Of a DNA stretch of 64,000 nucleotides, positions 3,719-43,372 are shown piece after piece. Position numbers and translations under genes: made by a program. Source of the DNA: Candidatus Uhrbacteria bacterium RIFOXYB12_FULL_58_10. GTDB taxonomy: Bacteria; Patescibacteriota; Patescibacteriia; UBA9934; GWF2-40-263. The stretch covers positions 21,184 through 85,183 of the forward strand of contig CALRHL010000001.1 in NCBI GenBank assembly GCA_943359455.1. Direction: 5' to 3'. The first letter of the stretch is position 1, and every line of letters starts with the position of its first letter. A model generated the notes under the pieces. It saw only the letters and a list, made by a program, of their open reading frames with translations, did not search any database and had not been told where the DNA came from.

Positions 3719-4600
3719 ATGCCAAGATCATTGAGTGTATTTGCAAAGATCAACCGTCTACGAGAGCGCTATTATTTAGCGGCTGTTGGTAAACAGTCGT
3801 TATTGAAATTGATCAGTGAGGCGGAAGTTTCTGAGCAGGTCTATAACTCCAATGCGATCGAAAATAGCACTCTCACTCTCGAGGAGACGGAAAAAATTTT
3901 GTTGCAAATTGATTTGGACCGTTATATTTCCGAAAGGGAAATTTTTGAAGCAAAAAATCTCGCGCGCGTCGTTACGTACATCGACGCGAAAGCGAAGGAG
4001 CAAGAACTTACCCTTGATCACATCGCATCGCTCCACAAAATGCTCATTTCCAATATTCGCGACGAGATCGCGGGGAGGTTTCGAAAAGAAAACGAATGGG
4101 TTCGTGTTGGAAGTCATGTAGCTCCGGACCCAAGAGAGGTTATTGATCGACTCGAGCGAATGCTTGCAGAATATCAAGGTAGCCATCATGAGCATATCGT
4201 CAAACGCATCGCACGGCTTCATCTCACATTCGAATATATTCATCCATTTGTTGATGGAAATGGCCGCATCGGACGCGTCGTGAATAATTACCTACTCATA
4301 CGAGAAGGCTTCGTGCCTATCAATATCAAATTCATCGATCGCGAATCGTATTATGACGCCTTTCGTGATTTCGAAAAAAATGAATCGACGAGCATCATGG
4401 AAGAAATCGTTGGCAGAGCACTCACAAACAGTTACCACAAGCGACTCGCCTACCTAGAGGGGGCTCACATTGTTACACTCGTCGAATACGCAAAAAAACA
4501 GAGACTCTCACATTCAAATTTGATTAACAAGGCTAACAGACAAACAATCGAGGCGTTTCTGGAAAAGGGTGTCTGGAAGATCGGTGAAAGAAACAACTGA
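3719..4600 (+). CDS. Fic-family adenylyltransferase (class II, with N-terminal inhibitory motif)
   Basis: Fic motif HPFVDGNGRIGR; putative inhibitory helix motif SNAIEN ((S/T)xxxE(G/N)) near the N-terminus. Confidence 0.85.
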   Translation: MPRSLSVFAKINRLRERYYLAAVGKQSLLKLISEAEVSEQVYNSNAIENSTLTLEETEKILLQIDLDRYISEREIFEAKNLARVVTYIDAKAKEQELTLDHIASLHKMLISNIRDEIAGRFRKENEWVRVGSHVAPDPREVIDRLERMLAEYQGSHHEHIVKRIARLHLTFEYIHPFVDGNGRIGRVVNNYLLIREGFVPINIKFIDRESYYDAFRDFEKNESTSIMEEIVGRALTNSYHKRLAYLEGAHIVTLVEYAKKQRLSHSNLINKANRQTIEAFLEKGVWKIGERNN

Positions 4601-4704
4601 CACTGAACGAACGACTAAATCGCGCAAGAATCGCGCATGGAAAAACTGTGACCGTATAGCAGAGATGAAACATTTTCATGTTTCTTTGATATACTTCCTC
4701 ATGT

Positions 4705-6285
4705 ATGCATCTATCTTTTCAACGAGCCGTTGGGTTCTTATGTGTGACGGGTTTTGCGCTGTTCGCTTTATTGACTTCTGTCCATGCATCGATCATTGAT
4801 AGTGTCCGCGGATATATTCTCTTACAAGTTGAGCAGCATGGAGAGGCGTGGTATGTCCCGCCCGATCTAGAAACGCGTTACTATCTCAAAGATGGAACAG
4901 CGGCATACGAAGCACTCCGAGCATTCGGACTTGGAATCACTGATGCCGACTTGGCAACAATTCCTGTTGCTGGTGAAACAGCAAGTTCTGCAACGACTGA
5001 CTCGGCACTCGTCGACCGTGTTTCTGGATATATTTTGTTACAGGTCGAACAGCATGGAGAAGCCTGGTACGTTCATCCCAAAACCGGGACACGAACATAC
5101 ATGGAAGATGGTGATGCCGCATACACAATCATGCGACAACTCAGTCTTGGAATTACCGACGCGGACTTAGAACAAATTTCTATCCATGAAGATTCCATCG
5201 ATCCAAACGCGAGCACAGACGGATCAACCGTTGCCTTTTTCTATCAGTATGTCGGTGCCCTCATGAACGGAGTTGGAGATAATGGTGTGCGACTTGGTTT
5301 GACAACAGACTCAGAAGCGATCAGCACATCTCTACTCGAAGCGCTCGACTGGGAAGTTCGAACAATAGAACTTGAAGCATCGGACGAAACTGAAGATGAA
5401 GAACAATCCTATGGCGATCCTGTTTTTAGCCGCCTGAGCAATGGAAATTGGGCCATGACTTCTTGGAGTGGAAGCGACGATCCACGTGGCGCAAATGTAT
5501 TGTTGTACCATGAGTCCGAATGTCCTGTTGTTGATGACGACGCCGTTGTCGCGATAACGGCATCTTCTGAATCTGGCTGTACAAACGTACGAGCCCTCAC
5601 CGTTGGAAAAACTTCACAAATTTTCGAAAAAGACGGCAATGATTATGTCTTTCACTCAAATGGAGGTGATGTGTATCTTGCGCAACTAACAGACGACGAT
5701 CAGACTGCTTTAGAGTTGGATTCATTGTGTGTATTATCCTCCCCTGTTGATGCATTTTCTGAACTAAATTATGGCGAATCCACAAAAGTGCTTGATGGAA
5801 GTGATGAAGGACTTTTGTTTAGCGACACGGCCATAGGGCAGCGTGAAGATGGAACATGGGTGCTGTTTGCAAAGGGGATTGAAACTGATTCCGGATGCAC
5901 GAGCACAACGTTGTGTGAATTGTGTGGGCGATCAATCTATCGCGCAACCAGTTCAGATCTCATTGATTGGTCAACACCAGAAGAAGTCGTTGAACAAGCG
6001 AGTGTTCCGGAAGCGTACGTCGCAAACGATGGCAAAATTTGGCTCTATCACCAAGATTTTAGCGACGTGTGTGATGCACAAGATCAACATCTCGCAACGA
6101 TCGCGCCTGTCACTGGTCACTACGAGGCAGAAGAAACATACGAACTGTCCGACCCGATTCGCGTAGAATTCTTAGACGAAGCATTCCAAACAAACTCTAC
6201 CATCCACTACGCGACCAACGGGAATCCAGTATCGTTACCAGACCAAGAAGCCGTCGAAGCACTCGAAGCATGTGCCAACATGTAA
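4705..6285 (+). CDS. secreted protein with two tandem ~70-aa repeats (GYILLQVEQHGEAWYV...DGxAAY...LGITDADL) and a C-terminal beta-propeller-like region
   Basis: signal peptide MHLSFQRAVGFLCVTGFALFALLTSVHAS; internal duplication read directly; Asp-box-like segments. Confidence 0.5.
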   Translation: MHLSFQRAVGFLCVTGFALFALLTSVHASIIDSVRGYILLQVEQHGEAWYVPPDLETRYYLKDGTAAYEALRAFGLGITDADLATIPVAGETASSATTDSALVDRVSGYILLQVEQHGEAWYVHPKTGTRTYMEDGDAAYTIMRQLSLGITDADLEQISIHEDSIDPNASTDGSTVAFFYQYVGALMNGVGDNGVRLGLTTDSEAISTSLLEALDWEVRTIELEASDETEDEEQSYGDPVFSRLSNGNWAMTSWSGSDDPRGANVLLYHESECPVVDDDAVVAITASSESGCTNVRALTVGKTSQIFEKDGNDYVFHSNGGDVYLAQLTDDDQTALELDSLCVLSSPVDAFSELNYGESTKVLDGSDEGLLFSDTAIGQREDGTWVLFAKGIETDSGCTSTTLCELCGRSIYRATSSDLIDWSTPEEVVEQASVPEAYVANDGKIWLYHQDFSDVCDAQDQHLATIAPVTGHYEAEETYELSDPIRVEFLDEAFQTNSTIHYATNGNPVSLPDQEAVEALEACANM

Positions 6286-36558: not shown

Positions 36559-38304
36559 ATGCCGGACCCGCGACGAGGACAGCATCAGCCGAGTGAACTT
36601 GATCAAACTGGTCAGGAGTTTTTGGATGCGCAGGCGGTGAAACACCCAGACTCCGTCGGTGAGTTGAAACAAGCGACTGAGTCGTCGGCTCGAACGGTGG
36701 AAGCGGTGCTTGGGGATACGAAAACGTTGGATGAATGGATTGAATTGAGTGTGAATTTGGAAGAATTGTTTCTCGAAGAAGCTGATGGAGCGCTTGGGAA
36801 AAAACTTATTGAACTATCCGCGCTTGATGATGCGGAATTCACCCAAAGACGAGAGGAGGCTGAAACGATTGTGAAACAAAGCGCGGATGCGGCGTCGCAT
36901 TTATACCCACTTATTCACCGACTCCAGACACTTGGATTTGCATCAAACCGCGAAGAGACCGTTCGAAAACTATCTGTCGGGGATTTGATCACCACAGAAA
37001 AAGTCCACGGTGTTTCTATTGTTCCTGTCCGCACAACCATAATCGGTCTCTTGCATCATCTCGACAAGCGTCTTCGTTCAAATATCTGGTCACTTGAATA
37101 TCCCCCAGAAATCCCACCAACCATCGTGGTTACAGATCCGTTTGATGCGCATGCAACAGAAGAACATTGGAAACGACTGATCCTCACAAAGCGTGAAATG
37201 TTTCCGGACGAAACTCACTCAATCCTCACGATTAGTGGAGACAAGACGATTGCGATTGCGTGGGAGATTGAAAATATTTTAGAGAAGACAAATGATCAGG
37301 ATTTGAAACAGGCCGCGACGGTGCTCGTTGAGTTTCTAAACCGAAAAGCGATGTACTACCAAGACCCTGATCCGCGTGATTTTGAACTGTATCACCTCGG
37401 CATGGAGCAACCGGAAGATTTGATGAAAATATTTCATTCACTCGACACGATCAAACACAAAGATCCAGAACTGTTTTTAGAAATACTCGGGGTAAATCCA
37501 GAAGACGGCGGTCGTTCGTCGTACTTTGGATCGCTTTTGCACAAAGCGATTTACAATACACAAATGGCGGTCGAACGAGCCGGACCAGAGCTCGGTGAGT
37601 TGGCGATCCGGACGATGATGAAACAGTTAATGACAATGTCCGCACATGTAAAAACGTATGCGGGAATTGTCTCGCAAGAATCGTTAAAAGCACTGGCGGG
37701 AGAAATGCGGAAAAAACTTGAAGGGGTGAAAGGGGAAGAGAGAGGAAAGATGCTCGCCATGATGGCTGTGCCGTTCTTACCGCTCGCGATTGATTCGGAG
37801 GTGCATCGTCAACTCGAATCTCTCCGCGAGACGAGTATGGAAACGGTCAGTGCTGACTTAAAACGTCGTATTGATGATACCGAACACCCACTCAAATTAC
37901 TCGAATTCATTGCAAACATGCCTACCATTGCATTCAATCTGCCAGAGATTCGAAAACCACTCGAACAACTATATCCTGGCAAACGAATCGATGGACCACT
38001 CCTTCAAAAACTTTGTCGCGAGCGAGATCGTGAAATTCTGTTACCATTGTACGATCGAATACCACTCGTTGACGAAACAAAAAAAGACCTTGGAGTCAAT
38101 CATCTTCTAAAATCACTCGTCGATGATTCCCTAGCTCTTGAAGGACGTTTTGCACGAGCAGGTATTTTTGCCACAAAACAAGTTCTTCGTTACCAAGGAA
38201 AAATGATAAAAGCTCTAGGTGAACGTGAACAAAGTGTTTACGATACAGTCGTCCTTGAAGAAGAGCATCCAGGGTTTCAACTATTATTTTACTATTTTCA
38301 ATGA
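36559..38304 (+). CDS. hypothetical 581-aa cytoplasmic protein
   Basis: ORF track; TATACT -10 box ~10 nt upstream of the ATG; no recognisable domain. Confidence 0.5.
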   Translation: MPDPRRGQHQPSELDQTGQEFLDAQAVKHPDSVGELKQATESSARTVEAVLGDTKTLDEWIELSVNLEELFLEEADGALGKKLIELSALDDAEFTQRREEAETIVKQSADAASHLYPLIHRLQTLGFASNREETVRKLSVGDLITTEKVHGVSIVPVRTTIIGLLHHLDKRLRSNIWSLEYPPEIPPTIVVTDPFDAHATEEHWKRLILTKREMFPDETHSILTISGDKTIAIAWEIENILEKTNDQDLKQAATVLVEFLNRKAMYYQDPDPRDFELYHLGMEQPEDLMKIFHSLDTIKHKDPELFLEILGVNPEDGGRSSYFGSLLHKAIYNTQMAVERAGPELGELAIRTMMKQLMTMSAHVKTYAGIVSQESLKALAGEMRKKLEGVKGEERGKMLAMMAVPFLPLAIDSEVHRQLESLRETSMETVSADLKRRIDDTEHPLKLLEFIANMPTIAFNLPEIRKPLEQLYPGKRIDGPLLQKLCRERDREILLPLYDRIPLVDETKKDLGVNHLLKSLVDDSLALEGRFARAGIFATKQVLRYQGKMIKALGEREQSVYDTVVLEEEHPGFQLLFYYFQ

Positions 38305-38310
38305 AGATGC

Positions 38311-39201
38311 TTGCCGGAAGATTTTCTCGAAAGATATTTCGATCACCGCACCGTGTTAGAAAGACGATTTCTTGACGCAGTCAAGCAGCGAATTTTTCGT
38401 GCAAGAGAATTTCCTGTTGTACCAATTCGCCCTGACGATCGAGCATATTTACTCGGACAGACACTCGTCGAACTCATCAAAAAAGGCGGAGGAGCAAAAG
38501 ATATTGTTGAGTCACAAGCAAACCAACTCGTTCAGTTGGCGAAACATGAAGAAAAAAATTTTGCTGACACGGTATTTCTGAGCATGCTTGCTTATGAGGG
38601 TGACGAGCAAATTGCCTTCACATTGTTCAGCACCTTCTGCGACCTGATTCCAGCAGAACGACTGTATCAGATACTCCAACTTGAGTCTCAACAAGTCAAA
38701 AAATTCAAAGAAATGTTTTTGGCGAAACCTATGCCGATCACGAAGGCGTATGTTGAGTATGTACGAGAAGTATTTAACTTTCGTCATTCTGGGCCAGCGC
38801 GATTGCAATGGTACGAACATCAACGAAAAATTGAAATGTATGCGAGACTTAATCGAGCACTCATTGACGGAGTGTCACCACTGACATTTTCTTTGACAAC
38901 TCATGAGTCTCCCTCCTCAAAAATCCAGGTGGACTTATTCGATATTCTGAACGAACTCACTATTGTATCGTACAACAAACATTTTGTATGGTTTTCTCCA
39001 GAAGTCCTTCTGACGATACAAAAAACATTGTTTGAACTTCCAGAAGAACAAAAGTTATATGCACGTAATAAATTCAAAGACTACCTGGGTGGAGAGATAA
39101 CTATAGACGACCTCACAATCGCGATGATTTCTGTCATGACAAACAAATACTTGCGTCCTGGTTGGCCGAAAGATAAAAGAAATGCTTCAAACCATTCTTA
39201 A
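38311..39201 (+). CDS. hypothetical 296-aa protein, likely co-transcribed with 36559..38304 (6-nt gap)
   Basis: ORF track; no recognisable domain. Confidence 0.5.
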   Translation: MPEDFLERYFDHRTVLERRFLDAVKQRIFRAREFPVVPIRPDDRAYLLGQTLVELIKKGGGAKDIVESQANQLVQLAKHEEKNFADTVFLSMLAYEGDEQIAFTLFSTFCDLIPAERLYQILQLESQQVKKFKEMFLAKPMPITKAYVEYVREVFNFRHSGPARLQWYEHQRKIEMYARLNRALIDGVSPLTFSLTTHESPSSKIQVDLFDILNELTIVSYNKHFVWFSPEVLLTIQKTLFELPEEQKLYARNKFKDYLGGEITIDDLTIAMISVMTNKYLRPGWPKDKRNASNHS

Positions 39202-39206
39202 ACAAA

Positions 39207-39243
39207 AACTCAAAACTCGACCATGACGGCCGAGTTTTGAGTT
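39207..39243. terminator. bidirectional terminator with 13-bp stem
   Basis: aactcaaaactcg ... cgagttttgagtt. Confidence 0.55.
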
Positions 39244-39597
39244 TCAGGCATGTGAGACTTCAAGCTTATGCAATCGTATCTCAATCTTTGTCGCGAAACT
39301 ATTGAACATCAAATGTGTTTCCTCAATTGACTCTTTCAATGTCCGATAAACTGCATCGATCTTTGAATCCAATCGTAAAATGTCGTTCTTTATTCCAGTT
39401 ATCTCACCTTTAATGCTTGTTATCTCACCCTTAATGCCAGTTATCTCACTCTTAATGCCGTTGATCTCACCATTAATGCCAGTTATCTCACCTTTGACGC
39501 CAATGATCTCACCCTCAATCCCCACGATTCTCGTATTCATGGTGATGAGGTAACTCATTAGATCTTGATTTGTTGGTTGAATATTCATATCCTCCAT
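39244..39597 (-). CDS. small protein with 8 tandem heptads I-x-G-I-K-G-E (coiled-coil-like) immediately downstream of recA
   Basis: IVGIEGE IIGVKGE ITGINGE INGIKSE ITGIKGE ITSIKGE ITGIKND ILRLDSK. Confidence 0.55.
   Translation of the reverse strand: MEDMNIQPTNQDLMSYLITMNTRIVGIEGEIIGVKGEITGINGEINGIKSEITGIKGEITSIKGEITGIKNDILRLDSKIDAVYRTLKESIEETHLMFNSFATKIEIRLHKLEVSHA
39394..39523. repeat. six to seven tandem 21-bp repeats (ttatctcacctttaatgccag consensus) that encode the heptads
   Basis: read directly. Confidence 0.7.
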
Positions 39598-39617
39598 TTT
39601 ATTGAATTAATTCTATT

Positions 39618-40679
39618 CTACTCCCCATCCCCCTCGCTTACCACCGCAGGTGTCATTGCTTCTCCGCTCTCGATTTTTTTCTCGATGGCTTTGCGAATAT
39701 CTTTCATGGTTTTCGGATGCTCTTTCAAATAGTTCTTCGCATTCTCACGTCCAAGGCCGAGTTTTTCTTCACCAAACGAGTACGAATTTCCGCTCTTTCC
39801 AACGACACCAGCTGGGACACCAACGTCGAGCAAATCTCCCGAGATTGAAATCCCTTCGTTGTACATTATATCGAATTCACACGTGCGGAATGGGGGCGCG
39901 ACTTTGTTTTTGACGATTTTAACCTTCGTTCGATTCCCAATAATTTTCTCTGCCTGTTTAATTTGTGCGGAACGTCGAATCTCGATGCGGACAGACGCGT
40001 AAAACTTCAATGCATTGCCTCCCGTTGTCGTTTCTGGATTTCCAAACATCACGCCTATCTTCATGCGAATCTGATTGATAAAAATAACGGTGCAGTGCGA
40101 CTTGTTGATGATACCTGCAAGCTTACGAAGTGCTTGTGACATGAGACGTGCTTGGAGTCCCATATGTGAATCTCCCATTTCACCTTCGATTTCTGCTTTC
40201 GGTGTCAGGGCAGCAACAGAGTCAACCACAATAACATCAACGGCATTCGATCGCACGAGTGTTTCGACAATTTCAAGCGCTTGCTCACCATTGTCTGGTT
40301 GAGAAATAAAAAGCTCATTGATATTCACGCCAATTTTCTGCGCATATTCTGGATCAAGTGCATGTTCGGCATCGACGTATGCCGCGAGCCCACCAACTTT
40401 TTGAATTTCTGCAACGATGTGTTGAGCCAATGTCGACTTTCCAGAAGACTCCGGCCCATAAATTTCGATAATACGACCGCGTGGGACACCCATAACTCCA
40501 AGAGCGATATCGAGCGACAAACAACCCGTTGTAATCGAATCAACCTTCATCGTCTTCGCATCTCCAAGACGCATGATCGACCCATCACCAAAACGCTGCT
40601 TAATTTGAGAAATAGCCTCGAGCGCTGCCTTGTTACGCGCATTCCCAGCGTTGACCTCCTCAATAATCTGCTTTGCCAT
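39618..40679 (-). CDS. recA: recombinase RecA
   Basis: [11 protein letters not shown] Walker A; IVVDSVAAL; overall RecA sequence. Confidence 0.95.
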
Positions 40680-40918
40680 AATAAAAACGATTACATTGAA
40701 TTACGTTCGGGATCAGTCGTCCCAGAGTACCAAATCGAGCTCGTAAGGACAATCTACCATAATTTAGCTAGGTTGACAAGTATTTTGTTGGTGTTTTAAA
40801 ACAGAGGATATTCAGAATCATCACATCTTCGCCAACCTTCGCATACTTTTCTCTGTCAGAAATTCAAAACATTTTTTCACTCGCTAGGAGTTATCCACTG
40901 TGCTATAATTTCATTAAT

Positions 40919-42604
40919 ATGTCATTTGAATATGAAAATTCTCCTCATGAAGATAGGAGCGTTCCGAGTCCGAAAGCTCTTATTGAAACCGTGCATAAAA
41001 AACTTGATGCAGAACGTCAGCAAACAGGAAATCGAGAGTTTCGTGGGATGATGATTAAGTTGCGAGAAAGTCCATGGCTTGCTGGACCACTAAAAACACT
41101 CACGGCACTGCTTGCTGGAGTTCCATTGATCGCTCATGCGGGAGAAGCGTCTGATCCACCAAGAGATCTCTCTGTAGAATCTTCATTCTCCATAACGGAA
41201 CCAGAAGAAGGCCGAGATGAAACAGACTCTGCTCATCTCATTGCCAGTGAGGAGCTTAGCAATCTCCTTCTTGCAGAACAGCCATTCCGTCGAACACCGA
41301 TTGAACAAGCATCGGATGCTGAGTTTCCATTTCCTGAATCAGATGAAGTCTATCTGCTTCAGCTCGCTGATCTAGGAAAAACAATCGAGGCAGGGCAAGC
41401 GGCTCCAGAATATTATGCGCGAGTCGGTCGTCCTGAATGGACGCCGTACCAGCGATCACTATTCTCCGCATCTCCTGTCCACGAACGCTTTTTCGAATTG
41501 CATCCAGAATATCGTCGATTGTCACCACAAGACTACGTGAAAGAATATCCAAACATGTTGCAAACCGCGGCAACAGAATTTCGATTCTCAAATGAGTTTC
41601 GATTTGTCACAGACAATGTCCAAACAGCATTTTTAGAAATCGCTCCTAAGCTGAAACCTGAGGAAGCATTATCTCAGTACAAATTTATTTTAGAAACAAT
41701 GGGTCGTCAGGTTGGGCTTGCTCATGTCATTGAGTTATCAAAAGGGTTGCAGGAGCTTCTTTCAACAGACCATCCTATTATCCAATACATGAGTGACCTC
41801 GACCTCAAGGACGCGGAGTCATTTCTAAAACCTGACAAAAAAAACATCGTTCACATCGATCAAGCAAATGGACAACTGCGCGTTCTGAGAAAAATATATC
41901 AAAGTTTTTTATTGATCGATTCTTTTCCAGCGATTGGAGGAAAACGACAGTCGCCAGAAATGTCTATTGTAGGAAAACCATCAGGAAGTGAGTATGTGCA
42001 CGTTCCAGATGTCGTGATGACCGTCTCGTCCGTCGATCGAGCAAAAACATCTTGGACATGGCAACGCTCATGGGTTTCACAAGATGCACTCATTCGAGAA
42101 CAGAGAAACGAGTTACAATATCAACATCCCGGTACAAAACAATGGTACGACCTCACGGGACCAAAAGCCGCATTCTTCCCAGATTCAGACGGAAATGTCA
42201 TTCGACCATTTGATTCACATTTCGAACCAATGGACCAAGCACTTATTCGAGCCGCATCACATTCAAACGCAGACCAGTCCGTCACTTTTGTTCCAAAAAT
42301 CTGGACAAAGGAAGAAATTGTTTCATGGAATGGGGGAGAAATTCCTTCGAAGTGGAAATGGAATGATTTTGGATCAACAGCGCTTCGTTTAAGTTTAAAT
42401 GGTGAGCGCACGAACATTAACATTCATTCAAAACCAAATGAAGATCCAAACGACTTCTTGGGAGATCGAACGCATGGGTGCATTGCTACATACAGTGAAT
42501 ACATGAAACAGGTCGTTGATCTTTATGGAGTAAGAAATGGAACAACGGTCGTTGTCACAAACACCCACAGCTACGATCTCAAAAAACAGCTCGCACATAA
42601 ATAA
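40919..42604 (+). CDS. hypothetical protein with a C-terminal L,D-transpeptidase-like (YkuD) segment
   Basis: C-terminal DRTHGCIATYSEYMKQVVDLYGVRNGTTVVV resembles the SHGC(I/V)R catalytic motif. Confidence 0.4.
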   Translation: MSFEYENSPHEDRSVPSPKALIETVHKKLDAERQQTGNREFRGMMIKLRESPWLAGPLKTLTALLAGVPLIAHAGEASDPPRDLSVESSFSITEPEEGRDETDSAHLIASEELSNLLLAEQPFRRTPIEQASDAEFPFPESDEVYLLQLADLGKTIEAGQAAPEYYARVGRPEWTPYQRSLFSASPVHERFFELHPEYRRLSPQDYVKEYPNMLQTAATEFRFSNEFRFVTDNVQTAFLEIAPKLKPEEALSQYKFILETMGRQVGLAHVIELSKGLQELLSTDHPIIQYMSDLDLKDAESFLKPDKKNIVHIDQANGQLRVLRKIYQSFLLIDSFPAIGGKRQSPEMSIVGKPSGSEYVHVPDVVMTVSSVDRAKTSWTWQRSWVSQDALIREQRNELQYQHPGTKQWYDLTGPKAAFFPDSDGNVIRPFDSHFEPMDQALIRAASHSNADQSVTFVPKIWTKEEIVSWNGGEIPSKWKWNDFGSTALRLSLNGERTNINIHSKPNEDPNDFLGDRTHGCIATYSEYMKQVVDLYGVRNGTTVVVTNTHSYDLKKQLAHK

Positions 42605-42616
42605 AATGGCGTGGAG

Positions 42617-43372
42617 CTAAGGCTCCACGCTTTTTTGTTCCGCGATAGACGCATCACGTACCTCTTCGAGATACGGACCGTATCGAGTTGGATACAGAGC
42701 GGTCAAATCGACCGTGATAATCTCGGGAACTTCTGGCAACTTCGACAGAATCAGCACAGCCGTCCCAGGGTCACCGAGTCGGTAGAGTGCATCCATGTCG
42801 GTGTTGCGAAGCGCAACACATCCCCATGTCCAATCGTTTGTCCAATTTCCTGGATTCCCGTGTAGGAAGATGTCGCCGCCGAGTACTGTGTCTTGGGCTG
42901 GAAGTCGTCCTTTGTTGATCGCTTCGACAAGTGTGTTGCTCGTGTGGTGGTCAATGAGACCACTCAGACGAGCGCGCATCACATCATCGAAGTTCGGGTA
43001 GTTGATCCCGAGCGACTTATGAAACTGCGAATACGGGTTGCGGTGTGAAATCTTATACCATCCTTCTGGGGTCCGATTATCGCCACGCTTTTGCTTCGTT
43101 CCTTCTTGCGAAGCTGATCCCATGGTGATACTCACACATGTTCCAGCCATCAGCCGATCGTTCTCGTACACTCCAAGCAGATGCTCATCTTTTACAACCA
43201 TGATCACACGACCAGACGAATGTTCATCAGTTGCATACTCGTCCGGAAGAAACTCCGGACACACGGCCCAGGCAGCCGCAACCATCAACAGCAGTCCCAT
43301 GTGCCCTCCTTGGGTTGGGGTTACTGAAGCAAGTATCGTAGCGGATTTTGAGCGTCTTGTCAATAAATCCAT
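42617..43372 (-). CDS. L,D-transpeptidase (YkuD family)
   Basis: HGNPGNWTNDWTWGCVALRNTDMDALY; probable true start at MGLLLMVAAAWAV (signal peptide). Confidence 0.7.
   Translation of the reverse strand: MDLLTRRSKSATILASVTPTQGGHMGLLLMVAAAWAVCPEFLPDEYATDEHSSGRVIMVVKDEHLLGVYENDRLMAGTCVSITMGSASQEGTKQKRGDNRTPEGWYKISHRNPYSQFHKSLGINYPNFDDVMRARLSGLIDHHTSNTLVEAINKGRLPAQDTVLGGDIFLHGNPGNWTNDWTWGCVALRNTDMDALYRLGDPGTAVLILSKLPEVPEIITVDLTALYPTRYGPYLEEVRDASIAEQKSVEP

Follow-up and report, generated by a model that had tools for sequence, protein, structure and literature searches.

In heptad coiled coils, isoleucine at both core positions (a and d), together with lysine at e and glutamate at g, specifies a parallel trimer, as in GCN4-pII and in the designed peptide CC-Tri (EIAAIKQ). 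Among prokaryotes, coiled-coil stalk proteins of the DUF1640/MCUR1 and Tcar0761 types have also been described (Hartmann et al. 2016, PMC4786415), and the logic of the recA-recX operon is well established (PMC3062782, PMC3854219). The window (the whole 64-kb stretch of DNA analysed here) contains a small gene 3' of recA that recalls these coiled coils in its repeated heptads and recX in its position. We consider it probable, at about 0.7, that this gene encodes a single-helix rod, that it belongs to a recA-linked protein family, and that its Gly-rich heptads are an insert of variable length within that family. The features of the locus are listed in Table 1.

Table 1. Features of the recA-coiled-coil locus (positions are those of the window)
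Feature	Position	Strand	Details
recA	39618..40679	-	353 aa; TIGR02012, 537 bits; Pfam RecA, 459 bits, and RecA_C
Candidate sigma-70-like promoter 5' of recA	40751..40779	-	TTGTCA-17-TAGATT, extended TG; consensus match only
Spacer between recA and the coiled-coil gene, 29 nt	39589..39617	-	Shine-Dalgarno sequence GGAGGA at 39590..39595
Gene for the predicted coiled-coil protein, 114 aa	39244..39588	-	Stop codon 39244..39246; P0001, identical on 8 contigs
Seven in-frame 21-bp units, heptads IVGIEGE to ITGIKND	39382..39528	-	TRF array 39388..39519
Conserved core ILRLDSKIDAVYRTL	39337..39381	-	Invariant R, D, S, K, I, V, R, and L columns in 8 orthologues
Conserved C-terminal segment NSFATKIEIRLHKLEVSHA	39247..39303	-	Family motif F[AS]xxxxxR[LIV]xxLExxHA
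Predicted terminator hairpin, 18-bp stem	39199..39245		T-run on the minus strand; convergent gene on the plus strand

The original prediction had described an ORF of 117 aa (39244..39597) following recA. A bona fide recA does precede this minus-strand ORF, but its start at 39597 is likely unused, and the real gene is the 114-aa version given in Table 1. The start at 39588 is preferred because the arrangement GGAGGA(A)T-ATG is kept in orthologous loci (L004, L091, L106, L109, L110, and L112) and the upstream ATG is missing in L109; gene callers choose the second ATG too (protein P0001). The gap to recA is therefore 29 nt and not the 20 nt given at first. Judged by its comparison with the L004 orthologue, the gene is under purifying selection: pS was 0.83 (a saturated value) and pN was 0.16 over 46 aligned codons, and dN/dS was ~0.09 with both aligned blocks combined. 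The adjacent recA gave a pS of 0.96 and a pN of 0.06 in the same comparison. This selection and the conserved Shine-Dalgarno-ATG arrangement indicate a real coding gene. Eight contigs from several assemblies encode the identical 114-aa protein, and DNA identity was 100% among the four that were aligned.

The coiled-coil gene very probably shares the recA transcript, as had been proposed, because the 29-nt gap contains no hairpin, the Shine-Dalgarno sequence is conserved, and a terminator is present only 3' of the coiled-coil gene. In the presumed two-gene transcript, recA would be the first gene, and transcription would start at the candidate promoter, which is the sole promoter-like site within 38800..41200. 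An SOS-box-like inverted repeat was sought upstream of recA and was not found. The terminator noted after the ORF was also recovered, in the form of a hairpin and a T-run directly 3' of the stop codon. The hairpin (-27.1 kcal/mol; z = -6.7) begins inside the stop codon and is followed by TTTTTGTTT; a simple terminator scanner missed it because of its AT-rich stem. Equivalent hairpins were present 3' of the gene in all loci checked (L004, L091, L106, L109, and L110), and comparison of the hairpin region with L109 revealed one compensatory change, from T-A to C-G.

Two plus-strand ORFs of 581 aa (36559..38304) and 296 aa (38311..39201) converge on the coiled-coil gene and have no match in Pfam or PADLOC. 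Neither is found at the corresponding place in L004 or L115, in which a RodZ-like HTH_25 gene comes next, and they therefore represent an insertion relative to those relatives. On the other side of the locus, a 561-aa protein is encoded divergently from recA (40919..42604, plus strand) and shows a sub-threshold match to YkuD (L,D-transpeptidase) in its C-terminal part; the gene after it (42617..43372, minus strand) encodes a clear YkuD protein. The best matches of the window RecA are in Patescibacteria/CPR MAGs, namely, DeMMO2_27 (82%) and Candidatus Paceibacter (75%), and its similarity to RecA proteins of further Parcubacteria and of Saccharimonadia is ~70%. The 353-aa recA is intact in the window and in the ENA contigs, unlike the copy in the L002 MAG (GCA_943354615.1, CALRCU010000021.1; positions 4201-5276), which is split into two ORFs of 210 and 143 aa, probably by a frameshift or an assembly error.

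The linkage with recA extends beyond the window. A recA gene was located upstream of the coiled-coil gene in 9/9 distinct loci with visible context (the window, L004, L091, L106-108, L109, L110/111, L112, L114, and L115). The two genes are directly adjacent in the window, L004, L091, L109, L114, and L115, and one extra ORF of ~90 aa, predicted to be helical, lies between them in L106-108, L110/111, and L112. These extra ORFs (L106:3890-4159, L110:476-760, and L112:298-576) are missing from the window; they share an LQ..VREQ.K.L segment and have no Pfam or PADLOC match. The outer flanks vary between family loci and comprise EF-P, YkuD, RodZ-like, or unknown genes. The RecA proteins at the family loci are 85% to 96% identical to that of the window, and since the genomes are this closely related, the adjacency to recA could partly reflect inherited gene order. 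In the next relatives (L005, with a RecA 82% identical, and L006, L007, and L009), the gene is missing after recA; in L027, recA is followed by an unrelated 116-aa ORF with TM and coiled-coil segments. No family member outside the close clade was found in the recA neighbourhoods of 80 species-representative genomes, and the family is confined so far to a narrow clade of Patescibacteria.

The window protein belongs to a family that has no name and comprises about a dozen clusters at 50% identity, with lengths of 63 to 120 aa. A profile built from three orthologues found P0053 (87 aa), P0054 (102 aa), P0055 (91 aa), P0061, P0062 (80 aa), and P0080 (69 aa). When 1.84 billion representatives were searched exhaustively with the profile, 15 matches were obtained at E<=1e-10, two giant repeat proteins among them, and only P0120, P0121, P0122, and P0124 were added to the family. 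The giant proteins, P0118 (1808 aa) and P0119 (4261 aa), match the family profile in 18 to 25 separate stretches, presumably via long runs of KLDAKIDS-like 11-residue repeats. Scans of family members against Pfam, NCBIfam, PHROG, and PADLOC gave nothing above threshold; the matches to Baculo_PEP_C, DUF1664, FlaC, LmuB, and JetC, which came from scans of the window protein, its orthologues, and adjacent genes, were rejected as sub-threshold cross-matches between coiled coils. The parts found family-wide are (i) an N-terminal MNxQPSNQDLM sequence, (ii) a core, LRLDSKIxxVYRKLDAKID, and (iii) a C-terminal RLxxLExxHA motif. It is the cap, the core, and the C-terminal end that would be the likely partner-binding parts of the protein. 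We regard the group as a small new protein family of a familiar structural kind, restricted to its clade.

Between the cap and the core, the alignment contains a Gly-heptad insert of 0 to 49 residues. Gly-heptad units are absent from P0062, P0054, and P0061, and P0053 and P0055 carry one or two Gly-poor heptads at this site; there are 3 units in one array (P0008; L004), ~3 to 4 in P0124, ~4 to 5 in L091 (of the form EITGIKS), and 7 in the window. The closest family member, L109 (RecA 96% identical), is missing the Gly array. On the evidence of these alignments, the heptad array is a lineage-specific insert and not a defining part of the protein. The 21-bp repeats would be in-frame duplications of a single heptad (g-a-b-c-d-e-f = E-I-T-G-I-K-G) inserted between the N-terminal cap and the core, and their copy number would have drifted from 0 to 7 among the orthologues by gain and loss of repeat units. 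The array may serve as a length-variable spacer that adds ~1 nm per unit. A second length-variable region, composed of 11-residue KLDAKIDSxxx repeats, was recognized in the orthologues.

In the window, TRF reported an array with a period of 21, 6.3 copies, 78% matches, and a score of 157. This is the sole tandem repeat with a score of >=60 across the 64 kb, and it is therefore no product of chance. The heptads are, in order, IVGIEGE, IIGVKGE, ITGINGE, INGIKSE, ITGIKGE, ITSIKGE, and ITGIKND. The original prediction of eight perfect heptads was thus too generous: there are seven Gly/Ser-bearing units, and the exact I-x-G-I-K-G-E motif occurs in only one of them. Similarly, the tandem array of 21-bp repeats was recovered, but its units are not near-identical as a set, since they share from 10 to 20 of 21 bases; near-identity is limited to the 21-mers of units 3, 5, and 6 (18 to 20/21), and units 3 and 5 share a 20-nt perfect match. 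The 49 residues of the array include 11 Gly, and the a/d register runs unbroken from the Gly heptads into the segments ILRLDSK, IDAVYRT, and LKESIEE.

The uniqueness of this repeat within the window and the 20-nt match between units 3 and 5, which could mediate slippage, would be in keeping with 21-bp units that act as DNA, in the form of iterons or of binding sites for a protein, or as a switch for phase variation, with the ORF being incidental. We consider this highly improbable. Residues are kept across the orthologous arrays despite differences at the third codon positions, and the repeat therefore does not act at the level of DNA alone. Moreover, slippage cannot turn the gene off, because the length of a unit is divisible by three, and the 4 aligned contigs, out of 8 that encode the same protein and all sampled from one strain, do not differ in the array; in both respects the locus differs from a phase-variable contingency locus. 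The 57-aa antisense ORF that spans the repeat on the plus strand (39380..39553; MSFFIPVISPLM...) is also no argument for such a role, as it is a mechanical by-product of the reverse complement of the repeat and has no support as a gene. The expectation that the repeat number varies held among orthologues (0 to 7); within this strain, no difference in repeat number was seen among the contigs (4 aligned of 8; seemingly a single strain, perhaps from a single project). Where metagenomes are assembled from short reads, differences in copy number may be assembly artefacts.

The window protein most likely forms a coiled coil, as its predicted structure suggests. Using 24 aligned sequences, AlphaFold2 modelled a single continuous helix over residues 10 to 116 (mean pLDDT, 95; Gly-rich array, 96 to 98), although two Gly residues per heptad are very unusual in a stable helix and AlphaFold2 monomer models yield helices readily. 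The array-free orthologue P0055 was also modelled as one helix (residues 7 to 90; pLDDT, 95). Position a is occupied by Ile, Leu, or Val in 10/10 consecutive heptads, and position d is likewise Ile, Leu, or Val in nine of the ten (the tenth has Ser). Within the array, position a is Ile in all seven heptads, d is Ile in six and Val in one, e is Lys in five, and g is Glu in six, and the Gly residues at c and f would form an outward-facing ridge. The a/d periodicity and the predicted alpha-helix are those of a canonical heptad coiled coil, and the beta-branched Ile residues at a and d, together with the g/e' Glu-Lys pairs, follow the sequence rule of CC-Tri and GCN4-pII. The model and the unbroken register therefore agree with the coiled coil that had been foreseen, in which Ile fills a and d and the surface is unusually rich in Gly. 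The Gly at f is not essential, because L091 has Ser there and some orthologues are without the array. The protein would be one long alpha-helix that assembles as a parallel coiled-coil rod, most probably a homotrimer of ~16 nm. This length corresponds to 107 helical residues at ~0.15 nm each.

A beta-roll or beta-solenoid formed by the heptads, which had been named as the alternative to a helix, was favoured by none of the tests run. Two Gly in every seven residues would suit such a fold, and a related protein, P0003, gives one weak match (E = 0.002) to the beta-roll family of grass antifreeze proteins, scoring 18.7 bits where the cutoff is 30. However, AlphaFold2 predicts a helix with high pLDDT across the whole array, the Gly-free heptads continue in the same register, Ser replaces the f-position Gly in L091, and orthologues dispense with the array altogether, so that we regard a beta structure as very unlikely. 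A period of seven residues is too short for a solenoid turn.

The helical rod reading is also consistent with the closest sequences of solved structure. In a phmmer search against the PDB, residues 43 to 71 aligned to CC-Tri (4DZL), the best match among designed peptides. The window heptad, E-I-T-G-I-K-G, and the CC-Tri heptad, E-I-A-A-I-K-Q, have the same residues at a and d (Ile), e (Lys), and g (Glu); their differences are confined to b, c, and f, which are surface positions. The window protein is natural, with Gly at the outward positions c and f, whereas the designs have Ala or Gln; its trimeric state is suggested by this likeness. Trimeric rods also appear among the other PDB matches, namely, gp26, a phage tail needle of the P22 type (4LIN), fibritin, and trimeric adhesins fused to GCN4 adaptors. 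Ranked first among the PDB sequences was 8QOX, deposited as "conserved membrane protein," which we take to be SlaB, the S-layer stalk protein of the archaeon Sulfolobus. Both gp26 and 8QOX resemble the window protein in having extended series of similar heptads whose core residues are beta-branched, but these rods are domains of larger structural proteins, unlike the window protein, which has no phage context. The closest solved protein in the superphylum is 7O97, a hypothetical small helical repeat protein of Candidatus Giovannonibacteria, the segment IAGMKHDIAQLDKRIDGLDKKI of which aligns weakly to ITGIKNDILRLDSKIDAVYRTL (E = 4e-4; ~23 bits); a literature search for PDB 7O97 found no paper.

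A phage XhlA/holin-like or tail-needle protein was considered and rejected. The PHROG matches, including that to the tail-needle family phrog_1219, were sub-significant and of the coiled-coil type, the neighbouring genes are housekeeping genes, and the viral contigs gave 104 pattern matches with 0 confirmed relatives.

The heptad module itself is not limited to this family. The first search returned 45 proteins, most of which share just EITGIKG-type heptads in differing architectures; among them are DUF1640-like proteins that have a head and a TM helix, MATK beta-layer proteins, and Firmicutes proteins ending in RRRPV. In the metagenome collection, the module gave at least 600 pattern matches, and a literature search found no paper in which the heptad strings are printed. 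P0003, P0006, P0014, and P0018 are not near recA, and the occurrence of heptad-only proteins in such unrelated neighbourhoods means that the module is not recA-specific. Four protein pairs of other bacteria (P0004/P0021, P0007/P0016, P0003/P0005, and P0018/P0030) are otherwise identical but differ by exact indels of 7 or 21 residues inside their EITGxK arrays, which reflect either real copy-number polymorphism or collapse in short-read assembly. These clean indels and the unrelated contexts suggest that the heptad module is both widespread and unstable in length.

The resemblance to DUF1640/MCUR1 and Tcar0761-type proteins lies in the use of short-period tandem repeats to build a stalk, trimeric in those proteins and putatively so in the window protein. 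EITGIKG heptads occur together with the DUF1640 layout or with MATK-type beta-layer motifs in P0011, P0017, P0018, P0085, P0007, and P0019; in P0011, P0017, and P0018, which are DUF1640-like, they form part of the stalk ahead of the TM helix. The window protein differs in having neither a head domain nor a TM helix and in its period, which is 7 rather than 9 or 6. Three related assignments were accordingly discarded: (i) DUF1640/MCUR1 (PF07798), as there is no PF07798 match and no hydrophobic C-terminal segment; (ii) an alpha/beta coiled coil of nonads or hexads (period of 9 or 6), as the period in the window is 21 bp, or 7 residues; and (iii) a beta-layer at FATKIE, as this sequence is not conserved and orthologues read ALDTNK, AMDTNS, and similar.

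With regard to function, RecA or the recombination machinery would be the obvious candidate partner, albeit a tentative one. Given the conserved linkage to recA, a RecA-related role is the most appealing hypothesis, although we hold it with limited confidence. In such a role, the protein would be a RecA accessory factor whose conserved core or C terminus binds RecA filaments, either a functional stand-in for RecX or DinI or a factor like Swi5-Sfr1 or Hop2-Mnd1, which are coiled-coil mediators of eukaryotes. The gene lies downstream of recA in all nine loci despite their differing outer flanks, it occupies the slot taken by recX in Saccharimonadia, and the recA-recX operon (PMC3062782, PMC3854219) offers a precedent. 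The observation that this is where recX often sits was thus confirmed for Saccharimonadia, which carry recX after recA. As in the case of recX, the gene is small, immediately 3' of recA, and probably co-transcribed, but the analogy is positional only. RecX has ~150 to 200 aa arranged in three tandem three-helix repeats, whereas the window protein has 114 aa and one predicted helix; no match to RecX (PF02631) was obtained at E<=1 in Pfam/NCBIfam for the window protein and none for its orthologues, nor was there a DinI (PF06183) match at E<=1. The protein is therefore unrelated to RecX and DinI in sequence and fold. The narrow clade of the family, with L005, L006, L007, and L009 lacking the gene, and the heptad-only proteins P0006, P0003, P0014, and P0018, which are encoded away from recA, likewise speak against a RecA accessory factor, and on balance we consider one possible but doubtful. 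Somewhat more doubtful still is the fully specified version, a putative trimeric rod, stoichiometric with RecA, that would bind or bridge RecA filaments in the manner of Swi5-Sfr1 or Hop2-Mnd1, replace RecX/DinI, and have its reach set by the array.

Less likely again is that the protein merely rides on the recA transcript as an unrelated cytoplasmic scaffold or as an amphipathic helix at the membrane surface (ZapB-, phasin-, or apolipoprotein-like). A profile of the apolipoprotein A-IV 11/22-mer repeats gave a sub-threshold match (E of ~4e-4), as did the Pfam families Apolipoprotein, Phasin, and ZapB; the 11-residue KLDAKIDSxxx repeats of the orthologues and the nearby RodZ-like and FtsK genes point the same way. 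However, these matches are far under the curated thresholds and typical of cross-hits between coiled coils, the RodZ-like gene is convergent and so not co-transcribed, and the Ile seam at a and d of the window protein is more in keeping with the core of a coiled coil than with a face that binds lipid.

As it stands, a small coiled-coil family is useful for annotation and would not surprise a specialist. The E-I-T-G-I-K-G heptad is a natural near-copy of the parallel-trimer design rule with glycine on the exposed face, and the natural series of lengths, from 0 to 7 units, would be convenient for probing the effects of a Gly-rich surface and of rod length on how stable and how functional a coiled coil is. 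If the recA linkage reflects function, the family would represent a novel kind of RecA partner in bacteria, and one that belongs to organisms whose repair repertoires are minimal.
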